Shown here in pieces: positions 4,742-63,604 of a stretch of 64,000 nt of DNA. The notes beneath the pieces were generated by a model. That model worked only from the letters and a program-made list of their open reading frames with translations, was not told where the DNA came from and did no database searches. Origin of the DNA: a virus (taxonomy: Duplodnaviria; Caudoviricetes); IMG/VR virus record IMGVR_UViG_2933348407_000001, positions 32,001-96,000 of that record; one strand, given 5' to 3'. Both the position numbers and the translations under genes were made by a program. Position 1 is the first letter of the stretch. Every line of letters begins with the position of its first letter.

Positions 4742-5341
4742 ATGAAGACCCGCGAGATCGCCGAGCACGAGGCCGTGTCCGCGTGGCTCTCCGCGGCGAC
4801 GGCACACCCGGAGACGGCCACCGCCCGCTGGCACCAGAACCCCCACCTACCGCGGCGCCTCGGGTGCGGCGTGACCTTCGACATCGTGCTGTCTGATCGA
4901 TCCCTGGTCGAGGCGGCGTATCAGCTTCTCGACCAGTACGAGCAGCCGCTCGGGCCCGCCGTGCTGTTCTCCAACCTTCGCTCCGCAGCCGTGCTGGTCC
5001 CGCGCGGCACAGCGGCGGGCTGGTACGGCCTGATGGCAGCCTCACAGTGGCCCGAACGGCTCCCCCGGCCGGCATGCCTTGGCGAGGGGCACGCGATTCT
5101 CGTGCCCGCGCTCGTCCCTCGGCCGACGGCAGGGCTCGTGCGCTGGCTGGTCCCTCCCGACGGCGAACAGTCCGTCGGCGGGACGCCGCTGCTCACCAGC
5201 CCCGTTCCGCTCGCACGATGCCTCTCCGAGGCGGGCGCCCTCCTCGCGCCCGTGGAGCGGACTCCCCTCAGCAGGGCCGTGTCGGCAGTCAGGTCGGTCC
5301 TGCCGTCGCCGTCAGTCCTGCCATCCCCCAAGAGGACGTGA
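4742..5341 (+). CDS. hypothetical protein (resembles the degenerate primase-polymerase-like proteins of Streptomyces Xre cassettes)
   Basis: GGAGG RBS before ATG 4742; motifs WLSAA..P..A..W, GVTFDIV, GPAVL, LVP.G and WLVPPDG. Confidence 0.55.
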   Translation: MKTREIAEHEAVSAWLSAATAHPETATARWHQNPHLPRRLGCGVTFDIVLSDRSLVEAAYQLLDQYEQPLGPAVLFSNLRSAAVLVPRGTAAGWYGLMAASQWPERLPRPACLGEGHAILVPALVPRPTAGLVRWLVPPDGEQSVGGTPLLTSPVPLARCLSEAGALLAPVERTPLSRAVSAVRSVLPSPSVLPSPKRT

Positions 5342-30800: not shown

Positions 30801-33800
30801 ATGGCGGAGATGGACCGCCGCGACGGCTACACGGACCAGCGCGTTCGTGACGTGCTGCCGGACACCCCGCCAGCCGACGCCGAAGAGGCCGAGCGCCGCG
30901 CAAAGGCCGTCGACGAGGCCCTCGGCTTCGCAGGCGCCGACGTTCCGCGCGTGCGTCGCACCCGTGAGGACATCATCCGTGCGGAGTTCGCCGACTTCGA
31001 CGAGGCCCGCTACCAGGCCGCCATTGCCGCCACGAACGGCTACTTCTACGCCCGGAAGTACAAGTACGGCAGCGGCATCAACGAACGAGAGCTGTTCTCC
31101 GGCGGTGAACTCGCCAAGTTCGGCCGCTGGGAGGAGTACGCCAGCGAGGAACTGAAGGACTGGTACAAGGCCAACGGCGGCCGCATCACGTACAACCAGT
31201 TCCGGCAGACCTACCGGGACAACGACCGCCGAGACCGGCAGCAGTTCGAGGAGGAGCAGCGCCGCCAGGCGGAAGCCGGGCAGACCACGGAGCCCACCAC
31301 CCCGGAGACGGAGCCGTACGACCCGGTCACGCCGCGCTTCGCGGATGAGGCGGCCCTTCGGGATCACATCCGCAGCGGGCAGCTCGACGAGGTGCCCGAA
31401 GACCAGCGTGGAGACGTGCCCTCAGCCGAGGAACGCGCGCAGATCGCCGATGCCGAAAGCACCCAGCTCTCCGACGGCGGCCGACTGCTCATCTACGGCA
31501 ACGAGGCCGGTCGCACCGGCAGCCGCAGCGGGCAGCGGTTCGACGTGGCCCTTCCGGGCAGCATGCAGCCCCTGTTCCGCAGCGGCTTCCACAGCGCCGA
31601 GAAGGCCCGCCAGTACGCCAGCGTCCTCGAGGGCATCAAGGACGCGGACGGCAACCCGTTCCCGTGGGACGCCCCCGACGTCGCCGAGCGCGCCCGCGCG
31701 TTCCGGACCGCCGACGGCAACCGGCTGTTCGACGAGATCACGGAACGCCTGTACGGCTTCAACGACCTCTACGAGCAGTGGAACAGCGACCGCGGCCAGG
31801 CATTGCACCACCGGACGTGGAGCCAGCAGGAAGCCGACTGGAACACCCGCGAGGAGGAAGCCGGCTACTCGATTCCCGTCGACCTGACGGACATTCGCCC
31901 GGGTGACGAAATCAGCTTCCCCGTGGCCACGAGCCGCGGACAGAACACGCGGCCGCAGGACGAGTACGTGGGAACCGTGCACGCTACGGTGACCGGCGAG
32001 GGAGAGCCCTTCCGATACCGCTCGCAGTTCTCTGCCTTCGGGAGTCAGCAGCTCTACCGGTTCCCGGCTGAAGGCTCCTGGACCAACCAGTACGGGGAGC
32101 ACACCGAGATCGACGAGGCGTTCCCGAACCTGGGTGTCGTCCGCCGCCGCCCGCGGCCCGATGAGGTGCCCAGCACGGGCGACGGCCGCGACGACCGTTC
32201 GTCCCGCGCGGACACCCCGCAGGCGGAGACGCCGGGCACCGCGACGCCCCGCGCGCGGCGGCAGCCCGCCCCGGACCGTGCTCCTGCAGAGCCGGAGCCC
32301 GCCGTGCCCTCGGCGCCGGCCGACGAGCCGCAGGGTGAACCCGAGCCCGTGGGCGGTCAGCCCGCGCACTGGGCGCGTGTCCGCGACCTGGTGCAGGGCG
32401 ACATGGTCCGTATGGACGGCCGCACGAGGAACGGTCGCGCCATCACGCGGTCTGGCTACGTCTTCACCGGGCCCGTCGACGTGGAGGTCACTCGCAACGG
32501 CCGTACGGAGCGGATGCTGCGCACGTACGTCACGGCGAACCCGGACGGCACTGGCAAGCGTGGCAATGTCTTCACGCCGCGGAACGCCACCGCGGCGCGG
32601 GCCGAGACGCCCGACGACGTGGTGCCCGGGTCTCCGGCCAGCGGCGCGCAGAGCGCCGTTCAGGCCGGCAACCTCCCCGACCTGATCCCCGCGGACCGGA
32701 ACGGCCGGGGCTTGTTCCCGGGCAGCACGGTCACCAGTGTTGACGGGCTACGTACCCGTGAGGGCACCGTCACGGGCGCCACCAGCACCACGGTGTCGGT
32801 GCGCTGGGACAACGACGACACCGCAGACGGTCTCTCTCCGAACGCCCTCACCGTGACCGGTGGCGACCGCCCCGACGGCTGGACCTCGTCCGGGCAGCGC
32901 GTGACCCCGCGGCACATCGTGACCGACACCGAGGGCGCTCTCCTCGGGCCCGTCGACGAGGTCAACGGCGACCGCGTCACCATCACCACCGCCGAAGGCA
33001 CCATCACGCGGAGCGCCGGAGATCTCCGCGTCGCTGGCGAAGTGCGCGACGACGCCCCGGGCACCGACCCCGTCACCGGCATCGACGACCCGGCGGCCGC
33101 GGACATCAAGGAGGACGACGTCGTGGTCCTGGACCTCGACGGCACGCCCACCACTGTGGCGGTCACCGGTATCCACCGCGAAGGCGACCGCGTCACCATC
33201 GACTTCGCCGACACCACCACAGGCGAGATCGGTCAGATCGACGTGGACGCCTCCCAGGTCATTCCCCGGGCCCAGGGCGCCGACGACACTCCGCCCGACC
33301 TCGGGCCGGACGACGCCCCGGACGCCCCGGACGACCTGACCGTGCACGAGCCGCCGCACCGCGTCGAGCCCGTCACCGGCCCGACCCTCGACCCCGACCT
33401 CACGATGGGCGACCGAGACGTCATCGGTGACCTCGCGGACGGCCCGGACGACGACCCCGACGCCCAGCAGGCCGCCGTACGCATCACTGCCGACCTGCCT
33501 GTCCCCCCGGAGCAGGCCGCCGCGCTTGCCGCGCAGCTCCGCGATTCTGCCGACCCCTCGACCCCGGAGGGCCGTGCCGCCCTGCGCGCCGCCAACCACC
33601 TGGACCGGGCTATCGGCCGGACCCCTCCGCCCGAGCTCAACCGGCCGCGGCCGTCGAACGCCGCACAGGTCGCGGAAGACGACACGATCGCCATCCCTGA
33701 CAACCGGGGCAACGGCGTGAGCGTCTACCGCGTTCGGGGTGTCGAGGACGGCCCCGGCGGTACGCGCAGCCTCCTCCTGGAAGGCGAGGACGGCCGTACA

Positions 33801-58709: not shown

Positions 58710-59102
58710 GTGCCCGCGTTGCCGCTGTCCCTGAACACCATCTGTGGCCTGGCCTGCGAGCCGTCTTTACTCCCGCGCGTCCGAATGGCCATCGCCATGA
58801 TCGCTCAGGAGGTGTTCGCTGAGTCAGTGGATACCCCGGGGTATCCGGCGCGCTGGAACTTGGCGAAGACGGTTCTCAGCCCGTCGGAGGCGCAGGCCGC
58901 CCAGATGATGGTCGGCATCGTCGCCTCACCTCCCATGCTCGCCGCGGCCGTCACCGCTGCCGCCGGCGGGGCCACAGACTCCGTCGGCATGGCCGCGGCG
59001 ATCACAGACGACGAGATCCTCGCCGCGATCCGCTTGGGCTGGAACGCCGTTGCCGGCGTCAGACCCACCGCGCCCGATGAGTCAGCGAGGGCAGAGACGT
59101 AA
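58710..59102 (+). CDS. hypothetical phage protein
   Basis: GAGGAGG RBS; ITDDEILAAI...WN..AG. Confidence 0.65.
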   Translation: MPALPLSLNTICGLACEPSLLPRVRMAIAMIAQEVFAESVDTPGYPARWNLAKTVLSPSEAQAAQMMVGIVASPPMLAAAVTAAAGGATDSVGMAAAITDDEILAAIRLGWNAVAGVRPTAPDESARAET

Positions 59103-59199
59103 GCCCTCACGGTGGTGCAGCGTCCGGGCTGCGGGGAGCCGCGGGCCTTCGGGCCCCGGCTCCCGCGCACCCCATCCGACTGACGATCTAGGAGGCGCC

Positions 59200-59631
59200 A
59201 TGGAATGGCTCATCTCCCTGGCGCCTGTCCTCGGCCCCCTCTTCGGTATGACGGGCGTGCTGGGCGGGGCCTGGATGGTTCACCGCCGGGAGAACCGCAA
59301 GAACAAGAAGGACGCCCAGACTGCAGAGGCGAACACCTACGTTGCTTCCGTCCAGACGGTCACGGACGGCTTTACGCAACTCCTCGAACAGCAGCGGGCG
59401 ACGAACGCCCAGACCCTCGAGCGGGTCGCCACTCTGGAGACCAAGCAGACCGCGCTTGAGCGGAAGGTCGAGGTCCTGGAGGAGGAGCAGCGACAGTGGC
59501 GGCGCTGGAAGGCGGCCGCGGTCGAGTACATCCACCAGCTTCGCGACCTGGTCGCCAAGCTCTACGACCGGCCCGTCCCGGCCCCACCCAGAGAGATCGC
59601 GGAAGACCTCGGCGACGGCCCCACCTCCTGA
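59200..59631 (+). CDS. membrane-anchored coiled-coil protein (lysis-module associated)
   Basis: N-terminal transmembrane segment, coiled coil and P.PP C-terminus; GGAGG RBS. Confidence 0.7.
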   Translation: MEWLISLAPVLGPLFGMTGVLGGAWMVHRRENRKNKKDAQTAEANTYVASVQTVTDGFTQLLEQQRATNAQTLERVATLETKQTALERKVEVLEEEQRQWRRWKAAAVEYIHQLRDLVAKLYDRPVPAPPREIAEDLGDGPTS

Positions 59632-59634
59632 GCC

Positions 59635-59665
59635 CGCGACACAAAGCCGAGGCACCCCCCAGAGT
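59635..59665 (+). promoter_or_regulatory. putative late-promoter motif
   Basis: CGCGACACAAAG-N13-CAGAGT. Confidence 0.55.
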
Positions 59666-59701
59666 CCGCCCGTCACACAACCTCGTGAAGGGCAGGACCT
59701 C

Positions 59702-60025
59702 ATGTCGCAGACACTCGAATCCCTCTCCAACGGCGCCCAGGTGGGCGCCGTGCTGCCGCTCCTCACCGCGGTGGTGCAGAAGCCCGCCTGGTCGGCGAAG
59801 TACAAGAAGGTCGTGGCGGTCGTGGCCGCGCTCGTCGCCGGCGTCTTCGCCGTGGCAGCAGACGGTGGATGGGACCATTTCGAGCACGGACAGCTCACGG
59901 CCGCGACCCTCCTCGGTGTCCTGGCGGCCTCGCAGACGAGCTACGACCTCGTCTGGAAGCCGAGCAAGCTCGCCCCCATGATTGAGGCCCTGACCACCAG
60001 GAAGACGGCTCAGCAGGCCGAATAG
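59702..60025 (+). CDS. holin
   Basis: ~107 aa, 2-3 transmembrane segments, PLLTAVVQ.P.W...K and SY..VWKP..A..IE pattern. Confidence 0.7.
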   Translation: MSQTLESLSNGAQVGAVLPLLTAVVQKPAWSAKYKKVVAVVAALVAGVFAVAADGGWDHFEHGQLTAATLLGVLAASQTSYDLVWKPSKLAPMIEALTTRKTAQQAE

Positions 60026-60072
60026 CGCCCAGGGCACCTGCCCGGCCCTTCGCCGGCGGGTACCATCAACTC

Positions 60073-60282
60073 TCGAGGTGGCCGTACCGCTGCCGCGACA
60101 ACAGCGTTGAGATAGCCGTCAGGCGTCATTGGATTCTCGGACACCGCGGTGACCCTTCTCCAGGGACGCGCCTGACACCAGGCATCGAGACCACCGGGTG
60201 CGTGCAGAGCACTCGGGGCCGGGGAGCACTGCTCAGCGATGAGCCGGCACACGCTGTCGCAAAGCTCGGTACGGCCACCTCT
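60073..60282 (+). ncRNA. predicted structured RNA (~210 nt), family unknown
   Basis: Perfect 15-bp closing stem 60075-60089/60267-60281, nested stems, TACCAT -10-like hexamer at 60061. Confidence 0.55.
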
Positions 60283-60337
60283 TGCTGCCCCGGCAGCGCC
60301 GAGAGCAGCGGGCCCAACCCGAGGAGGAACAGACCGC

Positions 60338-61159
60338 ATGGCCGAAGCACAGGAGATCGAGGCGGAGATCAAACGCCTGTCAGGCATGTCTCCCGATGGC
60401 CTGATGAACGCGGTCGTCCAGTACGTCACCGGCGGGTCCAAGACCGGCGCCCCACGCGACGTCCAAGGCGCGGCACTGCTCTCCCCTCAGATGGCTCCGC
60501 GGACCCTCGATGCGCTGGAGCTGGCCCTCAAGCGGGTGCGCAGCTTCATGCCCCGCCAGGAGGGCGAGAGCAAGAACCAGCAGGCTGCCCGCATCGCTCC
60601 GTTCCGGGCAGCTCTCCAGGCGGCCACGCGTCCGTACGAGGACGTCGTCGACGACCTCGCACACGAGGAGGCCAAGCAGCTCGCCGCGCTCGACGACAAG
60701 ACGTTCGCCCGTCGGTGGACAGCGTTCGTCCGCGACGAGCCGGTCACAGGACCGGTGCCGCGGCGGGTGCAGGCTCTCGCCTTCCGCTCACCGAGAGTAG
60801 CGAGCAGGGCTGAGGCGATCTGCCGTCTGATGATGGAGGAACCGGCCCGGTTCCTGCCGCCGGCCGCGGCTGGCGAAAGCCGCAAGGCGCGCGATGCCCG
60901 GGTCAAGGAGTTCCGCGACCGGGTCCTGGCGGAAGCGCGCTTCCTGCGGTACGGCATCCAGCACGCCGAGGCGCGCCACGGCCGGATGCCGAGCGAGCCG
61001 AACGTCCGACTGCGCGCGCTCCGTCTCCTCGGCCAGCGGCACCCCGAGGAGCTGTCGAGTCTCCTGCGCCAGGTCCGCGAGGAGCTGATGGCAGGGAAGA
61101 AGCAGGCGCGCAGAGACGCACGAGCGGTGCGCCGCGCCGCCGGGCAGAGCGCGCCGTAA
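60338..61159 (+). CDS. Arg-rich helical hypothetical protein with an internal tandem duplication
   Basis: GAGGAGG RBS; two ~100-aa repeats (PRDVQGAALLSP / PRRVQALAFRSP). Confidence 0.75.
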   Translation: MAEAQEIEAEIKRLSGMSPDGLMNAVVQYVTGGSKTGAPRDVQGAALLSPQMAPRTLDALELALKRVRSFMPRQEGESKNQQAARIAPFRAALQAATRPYEDVVDDLAHEEAKQLAALDDKTFARRWTAFVRDEPVTGPVPRRVQALAFRSPRVASRAEAICRLMMEEPARFLPPAAAGESRKARDARVKEFRDRVLAEARFLRYGIQHAEARHGRMPSEPNVRLRALRLLGQRHPEELSSLLRQVREELMAGKKQARRDARAVRRAAGQSAP

Positions 61160-61907
61160 GGGCGCGCGGCACCGGCCGGATCGTGGAGAGAGGGCGCGCC
61201 TGGGGCGCGCCCTTCGTTGTCTCCGGGCGCGCGCGATCGGCCCGGCCAGGCGCGCCACTGGCGGGCGCTCGAGGGGAACCGGCGCGCGCTCGATCAGTAC
61301 CCGCGCCGCGCGGCGCGGGTAGACCGCGCGGTCGACGGCGCGCTCGAGGACCCGCGCCGTGCTCGCCGCGCGCCTCCTGCGCTGGCCCGTTCACCCCGCG
61401 CCAGGCAGACGCGCGCCACGCAGCCCACGGGGCGCGCCTCGATGAATTCGCAGGTCACAGTGCGCGCGCCATCGACTCCGAGGGGCGCGCCGTCCTGAGC
61501 GCGCCATACCGCGCGGCTACGCAGGCGTGGGCGCGCCGGTCGAGATCAAGCGCGTCGCGCCGCGCGCCTCCGTGGGGCGCGCTGCGCGCCGATCGGGGGC
61601 GCGCCCTGCCCCGGCGCGCGCCATCGCGCGGGTTCGCAGGCGCGCCAAGATCAGCGCGCGGCGCGCCCCACGGAGGCGCGCCAGGGTCCCGGATGCGCGC
61701 CTCGGATTGGGCGGGCGCCTGGCGCGGGCGCGCCCCGGGAGGCGATCATGGGCGCGCCTGCCACCTTTCGGAGGCGCGCCTGCAGGCGGGGGCGGGGCGC
61801 GCCGCGCGCCCCGTGAGGTGAGGTGAGGTGACGCAGGGAGGGAGGCGCGCGAGAGCGGTGGGCGCGCCCCAGAGGCCCCGGGCGGGCGTCACCTCACGTC
61901 ACCTCAC
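61160..61907. repeat. non-coding array of GGCGCGCC/GCGCGC palindromes with terminal GTGAGGTGAC inverted repeats
   Basis: About 15 exact GGCGCGCC by manual count plus many variants; (GTGAG)n at 61813-61832 against GTCACCTCAC x2 at 61888-61907. Confidence 0.75.
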
Positions 61908-63604
61908 TGCCCTGCGGGCGCGCTGTCGAAGTAGGGGGCGAACTTCTTCGCGAGACCAAGATCCGGCATCGGCGCGCGCCGGTAGACGTCGGCGAGGACG
62001 GCCTGGTCGTTCTCCTCCAGGAGCGCGATCACCTCGGCTCGCTGCCCCTGCACGAAGTCCCGAAGCTGAGCCAAACCCGGCTCTCCGTTCGCGTAGATCG
62101 GCTGGAGGAGGTCACGCCGAGTAGTGAACTTCAAGCGGGCCTGTACCTCGGCTTCGTCGAGCAGAGCCTGGCGCGCGATCTCCGTCGGGTCGTTTGGCTT
62201 CTTCTTCGGGGCGCGTCTGGCCGCGGGCCGGGCCGGGATGTCCTGCGGCTCCTCGGCCGCGCTGGTGTCCTCGGGGGTCTCAGCGGGCGGCGGCTCGTCG
62301 GCTTGCGGGTCCGGCGGCGGAGGGGTGGCGCCTTCGGCCGGAGGCTCCTGCTCGGGCGTGGGCGGGACCGGCGCCGATGACTCCGGCGGCGTCTCGCGGT
62401 GCTCGCGCGCCTGGTCCTGCTCGACCGCGGCCGACGGAGTGCTGGCCGTCTCTCCCTGCCCGGCGTCGGTGCCGGTCGTCTCTCCCTGCTGCTGGTCCCC
62501 CGCGCCCTGCTGGCGCTTCTCGGCCTGTGCCTTGATGTACGCGAGGGAGCGGGTGATCAGGGCGTCCGCGCTCATCTTCCCGAGCCGGGACTCGGTGGGG
62601 ATCTGCTGGAGGGTGCGGATGCCCCACTCCTCGCGGATGCCCTGCAGGGCCATCTCGGGGTTGGTCGGGTCTTCCAGCGCCTTCTTGATGAGCGCGGCAG
62701 CCTTCGGGCCGGTCAGCTCGTTGTCCGCGGGGCGCTGCTGTTGAGCACGCTGGGGCTGGGTGGGCTGTTGCTCGTCGAGGTAGGCCTCCGGGCGCGACTC
62801 GGTGACCTGACGGTGTGTGGCCGCTTCCTCGAACCCCATACGGCGCAGAAGGGCGTCGATGCTGAAGTCCTCGAACCGGACGGTATCGCCGGGCTTCACG
62901 TCCCAGTGCAAGGTGCGCACTCCCGTCAGGTACGCATCACCGATGCCGCGCATCTCCACGATCGCGTCGACGGCGGCCGGGAGATTCTTCTCCGCCTTGA
63001 TCTTCCGGGTCGTGTTGCGGGTGGGCTTGTCGTTCTCGAAGGCCGTGACGATCTCCTGGCGGGCGATCATCACGACGGGCCCGGCGTGGCGGCGGAGCAT
63101 CCAAAGGATCTCGCCCCACCTGTCCTTGGCTCGGTTCCACAAGTCAGGGTCGACGACGACCGGATCGTCCAGGCTGGGCGCACGGCGACGGTTCTCCTGT
63201 GCCTTGTTCATGGCTCGTCGCCGGGCGAACAGGGCCTGCTCGTCGCTGATCATGTCCCACAGGTTGGAGCCGTTGTCGATGACGATCATGTTCGGCTTGC
63301 CCGCGACGCGTTGCGGCTGGTGCACGGCCCATCGGATGGCGTCGAGGATGTCCTGGTAACTGCCGTCATGCGGAACGATCTCGTAGTTGGCGCCAGGGAC
63401 TCGACCGTAGTAGTCGGCTGTTCCCTCAGACCCGCCGATCTCGATCCAGAACGCGATGCCGATCAGGTCGGAGCCGGTACCACGGGCGGCCTCGTGGCTC
63501 TTGCCGCATTTCTCCGGACCGCACAGCACGATCATGGGCGGGTTGGGGAGACCGGTCGGTCGGCGGGACTTGCGTTCACGCAGGGGCGTGGTGATACCAG
63601 GCAT
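61904..63604 (-). CDS. AAA_24/Sak4-like ATPase with a long acidic Pro-rich C-terminal extension
   Basis: Walker A GPEKCGKS, Walker B-like MIVID, VVMIAR.E and K.EKNL...VD. Confidence 0.7.
   Translation of the reverse strand: MPGITTPLRERKSRRPTGLPNPPMIVLCGPEKCGKSHEAARGTGSDLIGIAFWIEIGGSEGTADYYGRVPGANYEIVPHDGSYQDILDAIRWAVHQPQRVAGKPNMIVIDNGSNLWDMISDEQALFARRRAMNKAQENRRRAPSLDDPVVVDPDLWNRAKDRWGEILWMLRRHAGPVVMIARQEIVTAFENDKPTRNTTRKIKAEKNLPAAVDAIVEMRGIGDAYLTGVRTLHWDVKPGDTVRFEDFSIDALLRRMGFEEAATHRQVTESRPEAYLDEQQPTQPQRAQQQRPADNELTGPKAAALIKKALEDPTNPEMALQGIREEWGIRTLQQIPTESRLGKMSADALITRSLAYIKAQAEKRQQGAGDQQQGETTGTDAGQGETASTPSAAVEQDQAREHRETPPESSAPVPPTPEQEPPAEGATPPPPDPQADEPPPAETPEDTSAAEEPQDIPARPAARRAPKKKPNDPTEIARQALLDEAEVQARLKFTTRRDLLQPIYANGEPGLAQLRDFVQGQRAEVIALLEENDQAVLADVYRRAPMPDLGLAKKFAPYFDSAPAGQ

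Follow-up and report, generated by a model that had tools for sequence, protein, structure and literature searches.

A previously uncatalogued structured RNA next to an uncharacterised protein gene in a family of Streptomyces phage-plasmids

What lies in the gap between a small membrane-protein gene and the gene of a 273-aa protein in the DNA of a tailed virus (Duplodnaviria; Caudoviricetes), and what is it for? The gap belongs to a stretch of 64,000 nt, positions 32,001 to 96,000 of record IMGVR_UViG_2933348407_000001, which as a whole was the object of this analysis and is called the window below; it is part of a 108.5-kb IMG/VR 'provirus' record. The initial annotation, made from the letters alone, placed at 60061-60300 an unannotated and highly structured RNA, either a discrete non-coding RNA or a regulatory leader of the next gene. 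We find that the gap encodes, on its + strand, a structured RNA some 205 nt long, which represents a previously uncatalogued family. Related loci are cited by their L numbers.

The + strand of 60061-60300 folds at -114.3 kcal/mol vs -95.7 +/- 4.9 for 200 dinucleotide-preserving shuffles (z = -3.81; 0/200 as good), and the - strand of the same segment has a z of -2.79. The fold is closed by two arms 177 nt apart, GAGGTGGCCGTACCG (60075-60089) and CGGTACGGCCACCTC (60267-60281), complementary at 15/15 nt. The perfect pairing that had been read by eye is thus real and closes a four-armed fold, and the TACCAT noted in front of it is in the sequence at 60061-60066. All four stems are present in the minimum-free-energy fold: the closing one, GCGACA/UGUCGC at 60095-60100 / 60255-60260, GTCAGGCG / CGCCTGAC at 60118-60125 / 60169-60176, which an inverted-repeat scan also returns, and CCGGGUGC/GCACUCGG at 60194-60201 / 60209-60216. 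The three inner stems therefore stand where they had been placed.

Homologs were collected with the downstream protein, which led to five IMG/VR loci and four Streptomyces genomes, and with conserved DNA patterns, which led to more. A covariance model, R1, was built from 12 sequences. It gives a full-length match in each of the 23 viral contigs newly collected by pattern, and it matches 8 of 151 sampled Streptomyces genomes. On the window it matches 60073-60283, with 256.3 bits on the + strand vs 24.4 bits on the - strand. A looser pattern run on viral contigs returned 52 stretches, 41 of them new, among which L124 is the sole model match; of the 64 stretches matched by a pattern scan of metagenomes one, L086, is a true covariance-model match. 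When 151 genomes sampled from the class were scanned, the RNA was present in the centre genome only. Among 50,697 phage records a single one is related by blastn (11-base words), that of Streptomyces phage Gilgamesh, at 74.5% identity.

The model-based alignment of these sequences holds 39 matches, of which 36 are distinct. Standard pairs occupy 94.5% of its 2268 pair cells, vs 35.1-41.7% after the 3' side of each pair has been slid by 1-3 columns. The initial annotation had proposed covariation among homologs as the check on its RNA and the lack of it as the refutation; the 39 homologs carry compensatory changes, on both sides of the pair, in 44 of the 66 pairs, and none of 500 shuffles reaches any of the five measures used. 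Because this first alignment had been fitted to the model, the counts were repeated on 24 diverse members, aligned by MAFFT alone and folded by RNAalifold. There the variable arms misalign and are lost, which leaves 27 pairs over the helices P1, P5 and P6 (described below); 15 of them are changed on both sides, 98.9% of the cells are paired vs 38.7-43.2% after sliding, and again 0/500 shuffles reach these values. G-U or U-G combinations fill 236 cells vs 27 for A-C or C-A, and from this excess we conclude that the RNA is read from the + strand; in P1 too the G-U changes are consistent with the + strand only. Thus compensatory changes preserve the fold and fit the + strand only. Indels of 1, 2, 3 and 20 nt among relatives leave no conserved reading frame, and the element is therefore non-coding. 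In close relatives the RNA is conserved at 96-100%, vs 81-98% for the flanking coding DNA.

The RNA folds as a long closing helix, P1-P2, set on a four-way junction from which three further arms leave: P3, which varies, P5, a hairpin of 8 bp, and P6, which is invariant. Its structured core runs from the first to the last base of P1 (60075-60281, + strand, 207 nt). The 5' arm of P1 (60075-60089) pairs with 60267-60281; its GUGGCC/GGCCAC core is kept in sequence while the inner and neighbouring pairs covary, so that of the 11 pairs counted in the MAFFT/RNAalifold alignment 7 are changed on both sides, with 99.2% of cells paired. The 5' strand of P2 (60092-60108; GC, GCGACA, GC/GUU) pairs with 60251-60265 and leads into the junction, and helix 3 of the model-based alignment, in P2, has both-side changes in 5/6 pairs. 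P2 is missing from the shortest relatives, L037 and L086. In L048 (3598-3815) an additional hairpin is inserted between P1 and P2.

P3 (60111-60186), the long variable arm, includes GUCAGGCGU/GCGCCUGAC (60118-60126 / 60168-60176) and a pyrimidine-rich internal loop. Covariation in P3 was followed over helices 6-9 of the model-based alignment, and helix 7 is changed on both sides in 9/9 pairs; the insertions of this arm are lineage-specific, with 20 nt and a GCAA cap in Gilgamesh (L001, about 5000-5025) and GAAA caps in L047 and L023. The P5 hairpin (60194-60216) has 8 bp and a 7-nt loop, GUGCAGA; of its 7 pairs counted in the MAFFT/RNAalifold alignment 5 are changed on both sides and 99.4% of the cells are paired. 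P6 (60218-60252) is the most conserved arm. It is built on the helix GCCGG/CCGGC (60218-60222 / 60244-60248), followed by the junction ACAC (60249-60252), and contains a hairpin, GAGC-ACU-GCUC (60224-60234), and a 9-nt bulge, AGCGAUGAG (60235-60243), which holds GCGAUGA. The P6 helix does not vary in any of the 36 distinct sequences, and it is likewise invariant in the seven genome matches obtained by the covariance model alone. Mutual information among the unpaired columns is dominated by clade structure and yields no convincing further pairing or pseudoknot.

Where does the RNA begin and end? Its 5' foot is preceded by a promoter-like box, GGGTACCAT (60058-60066, + strand), that can be read in two ways: 60061-60066 fits the -10 hexamer TAnnnT, and 60058-60063 fits a -10 of the form GGGTAY. 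PMC8346170 gives GGGTAY as the -10 sequence of promoters that the SigB homologues of S. coelicolor recognise. The consensus GGTA[C/T/A][C/A]AT is present in 41/41 loci, with TACCAT in 24, TATCAT in 14, TAACAT in 2 and TACAAT in 1; its conservation, with T, A and the last T fixed and the third base free, resembles that of a -10 hexamer. From the end of the box to the first pair of P1 the distance is 7 nt in 25 loci, 8 nt in 13, 9 nt in 1 and 12 nt in 2, and GGGTAHMAT occurs nowhere in the 64-kb window except at the box. No -35 element is recognisable across the loci and a sigma-70 scan that requires one finds nothing; the place is taken by a GC-rich hairpin after the upstream membrane-protein gene (60041-60060, + strand), with the GGG before the -10-like box as the last bases of its 3' arm. 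This hairpin (-19.9 kcal/mol, z = -1.6) is unexceptional alone; the relatives listed have by eye a hairpin of varying sequence with a GGG end at the equivalent place. With either reading of the box, transcription would start at about 60072-60075, the foot of P1, and the transcript would extend from about 60073 to 60283. Given a start at the box, both ends of the RNA would lie inside the closing helix, and ends buried in P1 would be protected from exonucleases, so that a stable and abundant P1-to-P1 core is to be expected.

Public sequencing runs were searched with a 1001-nt query around the element. The search returned 24 runs from 16 studies, 11 of them recorded as RNA. In the 18 runs listed as RNA or 'RNA?' the match covers 0.19-0.22 of the query words, a share that corresponds roughly to the length of the element. 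Four of these runs, each from a different study (three recorded as RNA, one guessed to be RNA), were examined by contig. Each has exactly one contig of 187-196 nt that lies wholly on the element, with 0 differences and no loose ends (60084-60279, 60083-60274, 60084-60269 and 60094-60279). The flanks, i.e. the upstream membrane-protein gene and the downstream gene, are not covered by like contigs, which does not show them to be silent. The small pieces at 59820-59854 and 59913-59952 are 90-95% alike and have loose ends, and were therefore assigned to other organisms. A discrete RNA species of about 205 nt with both ends in P1 appears the simplest reading of the contigs and the box.

The gene that follows (60338-61159, + strand) encodes the 273-aa protein, a member of an uncharacterised family with an internal duplication and an arginine-rich tail. 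Residues 10-98 and 111-201 share 30% identity over 91 aa (E = 6e-7). No match to the family was found in Pfam (E up to 0.1), PHROG, PADLOC (E up to 1), NCBIfam or the PDB sequences, and the ESM Atlas gave no usable match for the protein or its distant homolog P0116. Relatives in a collection of 5.8 billion proteins are 'hypothetical' wherever the source names them. Two longer ones (422 and 450 aa) have a C-terminal extension; the distant ones, of 160-210 aa, have a single copy of the repeat. For this distant single-domain group the alignment is too diverse for a pattern search; as a query its member P0113 found nothing in viral contigs, its profile A9 found the centre genome only among 401 genomes of the class, and a cluster look-up led to small contigs and two 'hypothetical protein' names.

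The RNA and this protein family go together. An open reading frame (ORF) of the family lies directly after the RNA in 39/41 loci; the other two, L016 and L034, have no ORF call, and the available sequence of L034 stops shortly past the start codon. In the 151 Streptomyces genomes the RNA and the protein occur in the identical eight. The metagenome locus L086 extends the association to a distant relative: an RNA scoring 46 bits, with P1 rebuilt from other pairs, P2 missing and P6 nearly unaltered, lies 19 nt before a single-domain homolog with 36% identity over 143 aa (E = 2e-15). The upstream neighbours of L086 differ and include a divergent ORF that by eye resembles an XRE-type regulator. Thus covariation, a box at fixed distance, lone contigs of some 190 nt and the constant link with the gene all support the proposal of a discrete RNA or a leader of the next gene, and they assign it no specific role.

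Which element carries the pair? Streptomyces plasmids of 125-130 kb that are circular or complete, such as CP108533 (L057, circular, 129,653 bp), carry homologs of the module; many homologs lie on assembly contigs of 124-136 kb, and one in a 10-Mb chromosome (L008). The 129-kb record of Gilgamesh itself lists ParA and ParB, two tyrosine integrases and a sigma factor. We conclude that the RNA is hosted by Streptomyces phage-plasmids of about 125-130 kb that form one family and are related to Gilgamesh. A single copy of the RNA is present in the 108.5-kb record, there is one match in each of four host genomes, and the syntenic place is the same throughout. In Gilgamesh the homologous spacer, 337 nt between genes 75 and 76, carries no annotation, in line with the initial description of the RNA as unannotated. 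That description also put it after a holin gene, a label that gets no support from Pfam, PHROG or NCBIfam: the 107-aa protein encoded upstream (stop codon 60023-60025) spans the membrane by eye and has no family match in these three collections. The gene before it has weak Rz/LysB-like and XhlA-like matches, under the curated cut-offs. Elsewhere in the Gilgamesh record, gene 48 (L053, 31978-45852), after the portal gene, is a single 13.9-kb gene for a hypothetical protein, and a 'ribosome modulation factor' gene is also annotated.

The spacer between the RNA and the protein gene measures 26-77 nt across the 41 loci. In the window it contains a small hairpin, GCUGCC-CC-GGCAGC (60284-60297, + strand), 2 nt after P1 and devoid of a U tract; it is no stabler than shuffles (z = -0.8) and may be an attenuator or a terminator. 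Most relatives have by eye a hairpin of different sequence after P1. It is missing in L045 and L086, where the spacer is 26 and 19 nt long respectively; there the RNA abuts the ribosome-binding site, and the gene must therefore be transcribed through the RNA. Next comes the box CCGAGAGCAGCGGG (60299-60312, + strand), which in relatives forms a hairpin with the loop AGAGCAG, and then the ribosome-binding site GAGGAGGA (60321-60328, + strand). The (A/G)GAGCA box is found in 31/41 spacers and missing from 10/41 RNA-bearing loci; L045 and L086 are without it. The stem under the AGAGCAG loop varies by lineage yet stays paired (GCCCG/CGGGC vs GCUUG/CGAGC), and the loop could pair with 6 nt in the 3' strand of the P6 hairpin. 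Two other pairings were tried and rejected. GCUGCC after the 5' arm of P1 could pair with the 3' arm of the post-P1 hairpin in the window and L026, which fails in L015, L024 and L025; the 3' arm of P1 as an anti-Shine-Dalgarno sequence fits the lineage of the window (CCACCUC) and fails in that of L025-L028 (CCAUCG).

Downstream, the 273-aa gene is followed by a terminator-like hairpin (61185-61224, + strand), GGGCGCGCC-UGG-GGCGCGCCC then UUCGUUGU; the segment 61157-61225 folds at -37.8 kcal/mol (z = -1.8), and similar hairpins stand after the stop codon in L037 and L048. An array of the 8-bp palindrome GGCGCGCC (61193-61868) occupies most of the 740-nt gap (61160-61903) before a convergent recombinase gene and holds 15 of the 18 exact copies of the window. 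At the equivalent place other lineages have other motifs: GGGGCGATC x32, mostly 15 nt apart, in L048, GGTGGCGCGG x23 in L041, GGCGAACCC in L037, L029 and L030, GGCGTACC in L038, and GTACGGCTTCG, 18 nt apart, in L043. To judge from these motifs the repeats look like a lineage-specific protein-binding array, e.g. an origin, a centromere or an operator. Two links with the module were considered and dropped: the RNA does not carry the repeat motif, and the 273-aa protein is unlikely to bind the array, its conserved blocks being unaltered in L048 and L041, which have different arrays. Because the RNA core and the protein blocks stay constant while the repeat motif changes in these two loci, we favour an RNA-protein unit over a binding of the protein to the DNA repeats. 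Close to the 3' end of the convergent gene, GGTGA/GTGAC runs in three copies (61815-61832, 61887-61906) face inverted copies about 50 nt off, and these runs are conserved across lineages (also L037, L038 and L043) despite the different main array motif. The convergent gene itself (window 61904-63604, - strand) encodes a Sak4-like (AAA_24) single-strand annealing protein, replaced at the same position in L038 (6727-8061, - strand) by an ERF-family annealing protein, i.e. a swap of non-homologous recombinases.

Does the pair belong to any known system? Rfam 15 (4227 models), run in E-value mode on 59000-62000, gives four weak matches, all far below the gathering cut-offs and none in 60061-60300, and it matches nothing on the element in seven divergent homolog loci. 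ARAGORN finds 0 tRNA or transfer-messenger RNA (tmRNA) genes in the whole window. A literature search, with supplementary files outside its scope, returned nothing on this RNA, on phage Gilgamesh or on RNAs of Streptomyces phage-plasmids, and a term look-up in PMC8632094 gave no hit for Streptomyces or phage. The functions initially floated, namely an RNA-polymerase decoy, a packaging RNA, an antitoxin or a guide, gain nothing from these searches, which show no Rfam match to the RNA, no PADLOC match to the protein and no tandem repeats: in 59900-60450 the direct repeats are two families of two copies each (12 and 15 nt), with the copies 223 and 376 nt apart.

Likenesses nevertheless appear with several kinds of RNA. 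A retron msr-msd is also an RNA closed by inverted repeats (here 15 nt, perfect), but the 273-aa protein downstream has no RVT domain (no Pfam match, E up to 0.1). Mobile elements benefit from addiction or defence modules, and type III toxin-antitoxin systems (ToxIN, CptIN, TenpIN) offer a close parallel in layout: a promoter, an RNA apparently in excess, a hairpin and a protein gene, carried by a mobile element. In contrast to these, the RNA here has no tandem repeats and the protein no ToxN/AbiQ-type, PADLOC or Pfam match; moreover, the hairpin between RNA and gene, seen by eye after P1 in most loci, is absent from L045 and L086. ROOL and GOLLD are orphan structured RNAs of prophages and phages with families in Rfam. 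They share with our RNA a conserved and complex fold found comparatively on temperate phages, but ours is much smaller, has a fixed protein-gene partner and matches neither model, and within our searches it is limited to the Streptomyces phage-plasmids and one metagenome relative. Neither the RNA nor the protein thus belongs to any catalogued family, and most of the known systems tested fail a defining feature; this statement concerns families, not the mechanism.

What, then, could the RNA do? The reading that we prefer, with a probability of roughly 0.45, is that RNA and protein form one unit: a stable RNA would be co-transcribed with the downstream gene and would bind or regulate its product. 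The operon would start at the RNA; its P1-to-P1 core would persist abundantly, and the message downstream would be present at a much lower level. The invariant P6 arm and the junction would be the docking site for the arginine-rich protein. The RNA could be the functional ribonucleoprotein partner of the protein or an operator for the protein's own level, and the pair would serve maintenance of the carrier state, immunity or counter-defence. A more specific version, in which an abundant ribonucleoprotein of a new kind is assembled in the carrier state from the RNA and the two-repeat protein, with the RNA as a scaffold docking through P6 and a job in maintenance, superinfection immunity or counter-defence, is tentative and in our view rather doubtful. 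Several points weigh against the preferred reading. A leader that acts purely in cis would explain the layout just as well. Among known RNA-binding families none matches the protein. Ascertainment accounts for part of the invariance of P6, since the patterns used to search for homologs required P6 bases. The adjacency of RNA and protein on one mobile element is partly inherited, and L086 is the only independent context. With no -35 to be recognised, the -10-like box is all that the promoter is called from. Lastly, the agreement of the contigs is a weak hint, assembled contigs being unable to show strand, true ends or level.

The cis-acting layout is the core of an explanation that we regard as unlikely, though worth weighing: a riboswitch-like or ribozyme-like leader through which a small molecule or host factor would set the downstream gene, via the post-P1 hairpin or the stability of the mRNA, the stable 200-nt species being a terminated or decay-resistant leader. 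The RNA does occupy the 5' region of the gene, in the same orientation, with no second promoter recognised in the window and with the start codon as close as 26 nt in L045 and 19 nt in L086, and a multi-helix junction closed by P1, with conserved bases in the junction and an internal loop, is typical of aptamers. But no known riboswitch or ribozyme class in Rfam matches it, and the 15 perfect pairs of P1, continued by P2, are very stable for a switching helix; by inspection no conserved alternative pairing was found to compete with P1. Nor do the candidate outputs behave as expected: the spacer hairpins are no stabler than shuffles and not conserved in sequence, and the pairing of the P1 3' arm with the ribosome-binding site works in the lineage of the window but not in L025-L028. 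The RNA is moreover tied to a single gene family of unknown function. A decoy or sponge for a host factor, with its position before the gene incidental, is a still weaker candidate, and we consider it improbable. Its models are stable RNAs with both ends paired and a dedicated protein: the bacterial Y RNA with Rsr/Ro, and 6S and Ms1 with RNA polymerase. The long terminal helix with a conserved stretch and the apparently high abundance and stability, judged from lone contigs in metatranscriptome assemblies of low depth, recall these RNAs, and the conservation in sequence of the P1 core and P6 is what protein recognition would leave. However, there is no Rfam match to 6S, Ms1, Y RNA or another family and no tRNA-like module, and the neighbouring protein has no TROVE domain (no Pfam match). 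Above all, the tie to one protein family persists in a different gene context, which an incidental position cannot explain.

Slightly less probable again is an immunity RNA of the kind found in P1/P7 (c4), P4 (CI) and N15 (CA), which are stable RNAs of 70-80 nt with a single hairpin. Such an RNA would be cut from the leader of its own operon, pair downstream and silence a gene, e.g. an antirepressor, in the carrier state. The parallel lies in that a putatively stable RNA stands here at the start of an operon in a phage-plasmid, upstream of a possible target gene, and in that a short complementarity (here 6 nt, predicted) precedes the ribosome-binding site of that gene: the 3' strand of the P6 hairpin (CUGCUC, elsewhere UUGCUC) can pair with 6 bases of the AGAGCAG loop, which lies 15-25 nt before the site, the box being present in 31/41 loci. 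A complementarity of 6 bases will nevertheless arise fairly often by chance in a GC-rich RNA of 205 nt, both partners are conserved and thus give no covariation, the complementary bases are paired within P6, and the box is missing from 10/41 loci that retain the RNA. The RNA here is also three times larger than the known ones; in place of a single hairpin it has a four-way junction and an internal loop that does not vary, and nothing relates it to them in sequence or in Rfam. A role in replication or copy number of the plasmid state, as a primer, an origin RNA or a rep-control RNA acting with the downstream array, seems very unlikely. It would suit the location: the element exists as a circular plasmid, the virion and lysis genes immediately precede the RNA, and a lineage-specific repeat array follows about 900 nt downstream. 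The extrachromosomal prophages of cluster A mycobacteriophages have non-coding origin regions of about 600 bp, opposite to the virion genes and next to parA (PMC7157519), and these are likewise regions of non-coding RNA just downstream of virion genes in a plasmid-type actinobacteriophage prophage. Our RNA differs from them in being 205 nt long, in running in the direction of the virion genes and in its link with a protein gene, and there is no sequence relation, blastn against the 50,697 phage records giving Gilgamesh only and thus no mycobacteriophage. About 55 nt separate the end of the stable species from the protein gene and about 900 nt separate it from the array, the RNA core is constant where the repeat motif changes, and in L086 the RNA-protein pair sits in an apparently different context. 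Finally, that the locus is a DNA-level element (a miniature inverted-repeat transposable element or MITE, a protein-binding inverted repeat, a recombination site) or a small coding gene has next to no probability. In principle the perfect 15-bp inverted repeat might represent the terminal repeats of such an element, and the initial annotation had itself offered a MITE as the refuting case. But the element is single-copy in its record, with one match in each of four host genomes and a fixed synteny, and no duplicated target bases flank the closing helix; pairing by G-U on the + strand only (236 vs 27) would be meaningless for DNA, and the indels of 1, 2, 3 and 20 nt preclude a conserved frame.

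New structured RNA classes with comparable covariation are uncommon, and those that combine about 200 nt, a conserved four-way junction and a dedicated protein-gene partner are rarer. If the more specific version of the preferred reading were true, the ribonucleoprotein would be a non-repetitive counterpart of type III toxin-antitoxin systems, or a phage-made analogue of Y RNA with Ro. The circular Streptomyces plasmids of about 125-130 kb and the isolated phage Gilgamesh, with S. lividans as its recorded host, provide an experimental handle, and the RNA seems abundant enough to be assembled on its own from RNA data of soil, rhizosphere and compost. To our knowledge, actinobacterial phage-plasmids have barely been studied, and their carrier state, copy number and resistance to other phages are unexplained. 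With its apparently stable RNA, its protein and a lineage-specific repeat array next to them, the module is a concrete candidate for a job in the carrier state, in the control of copy number or in phage resistance.

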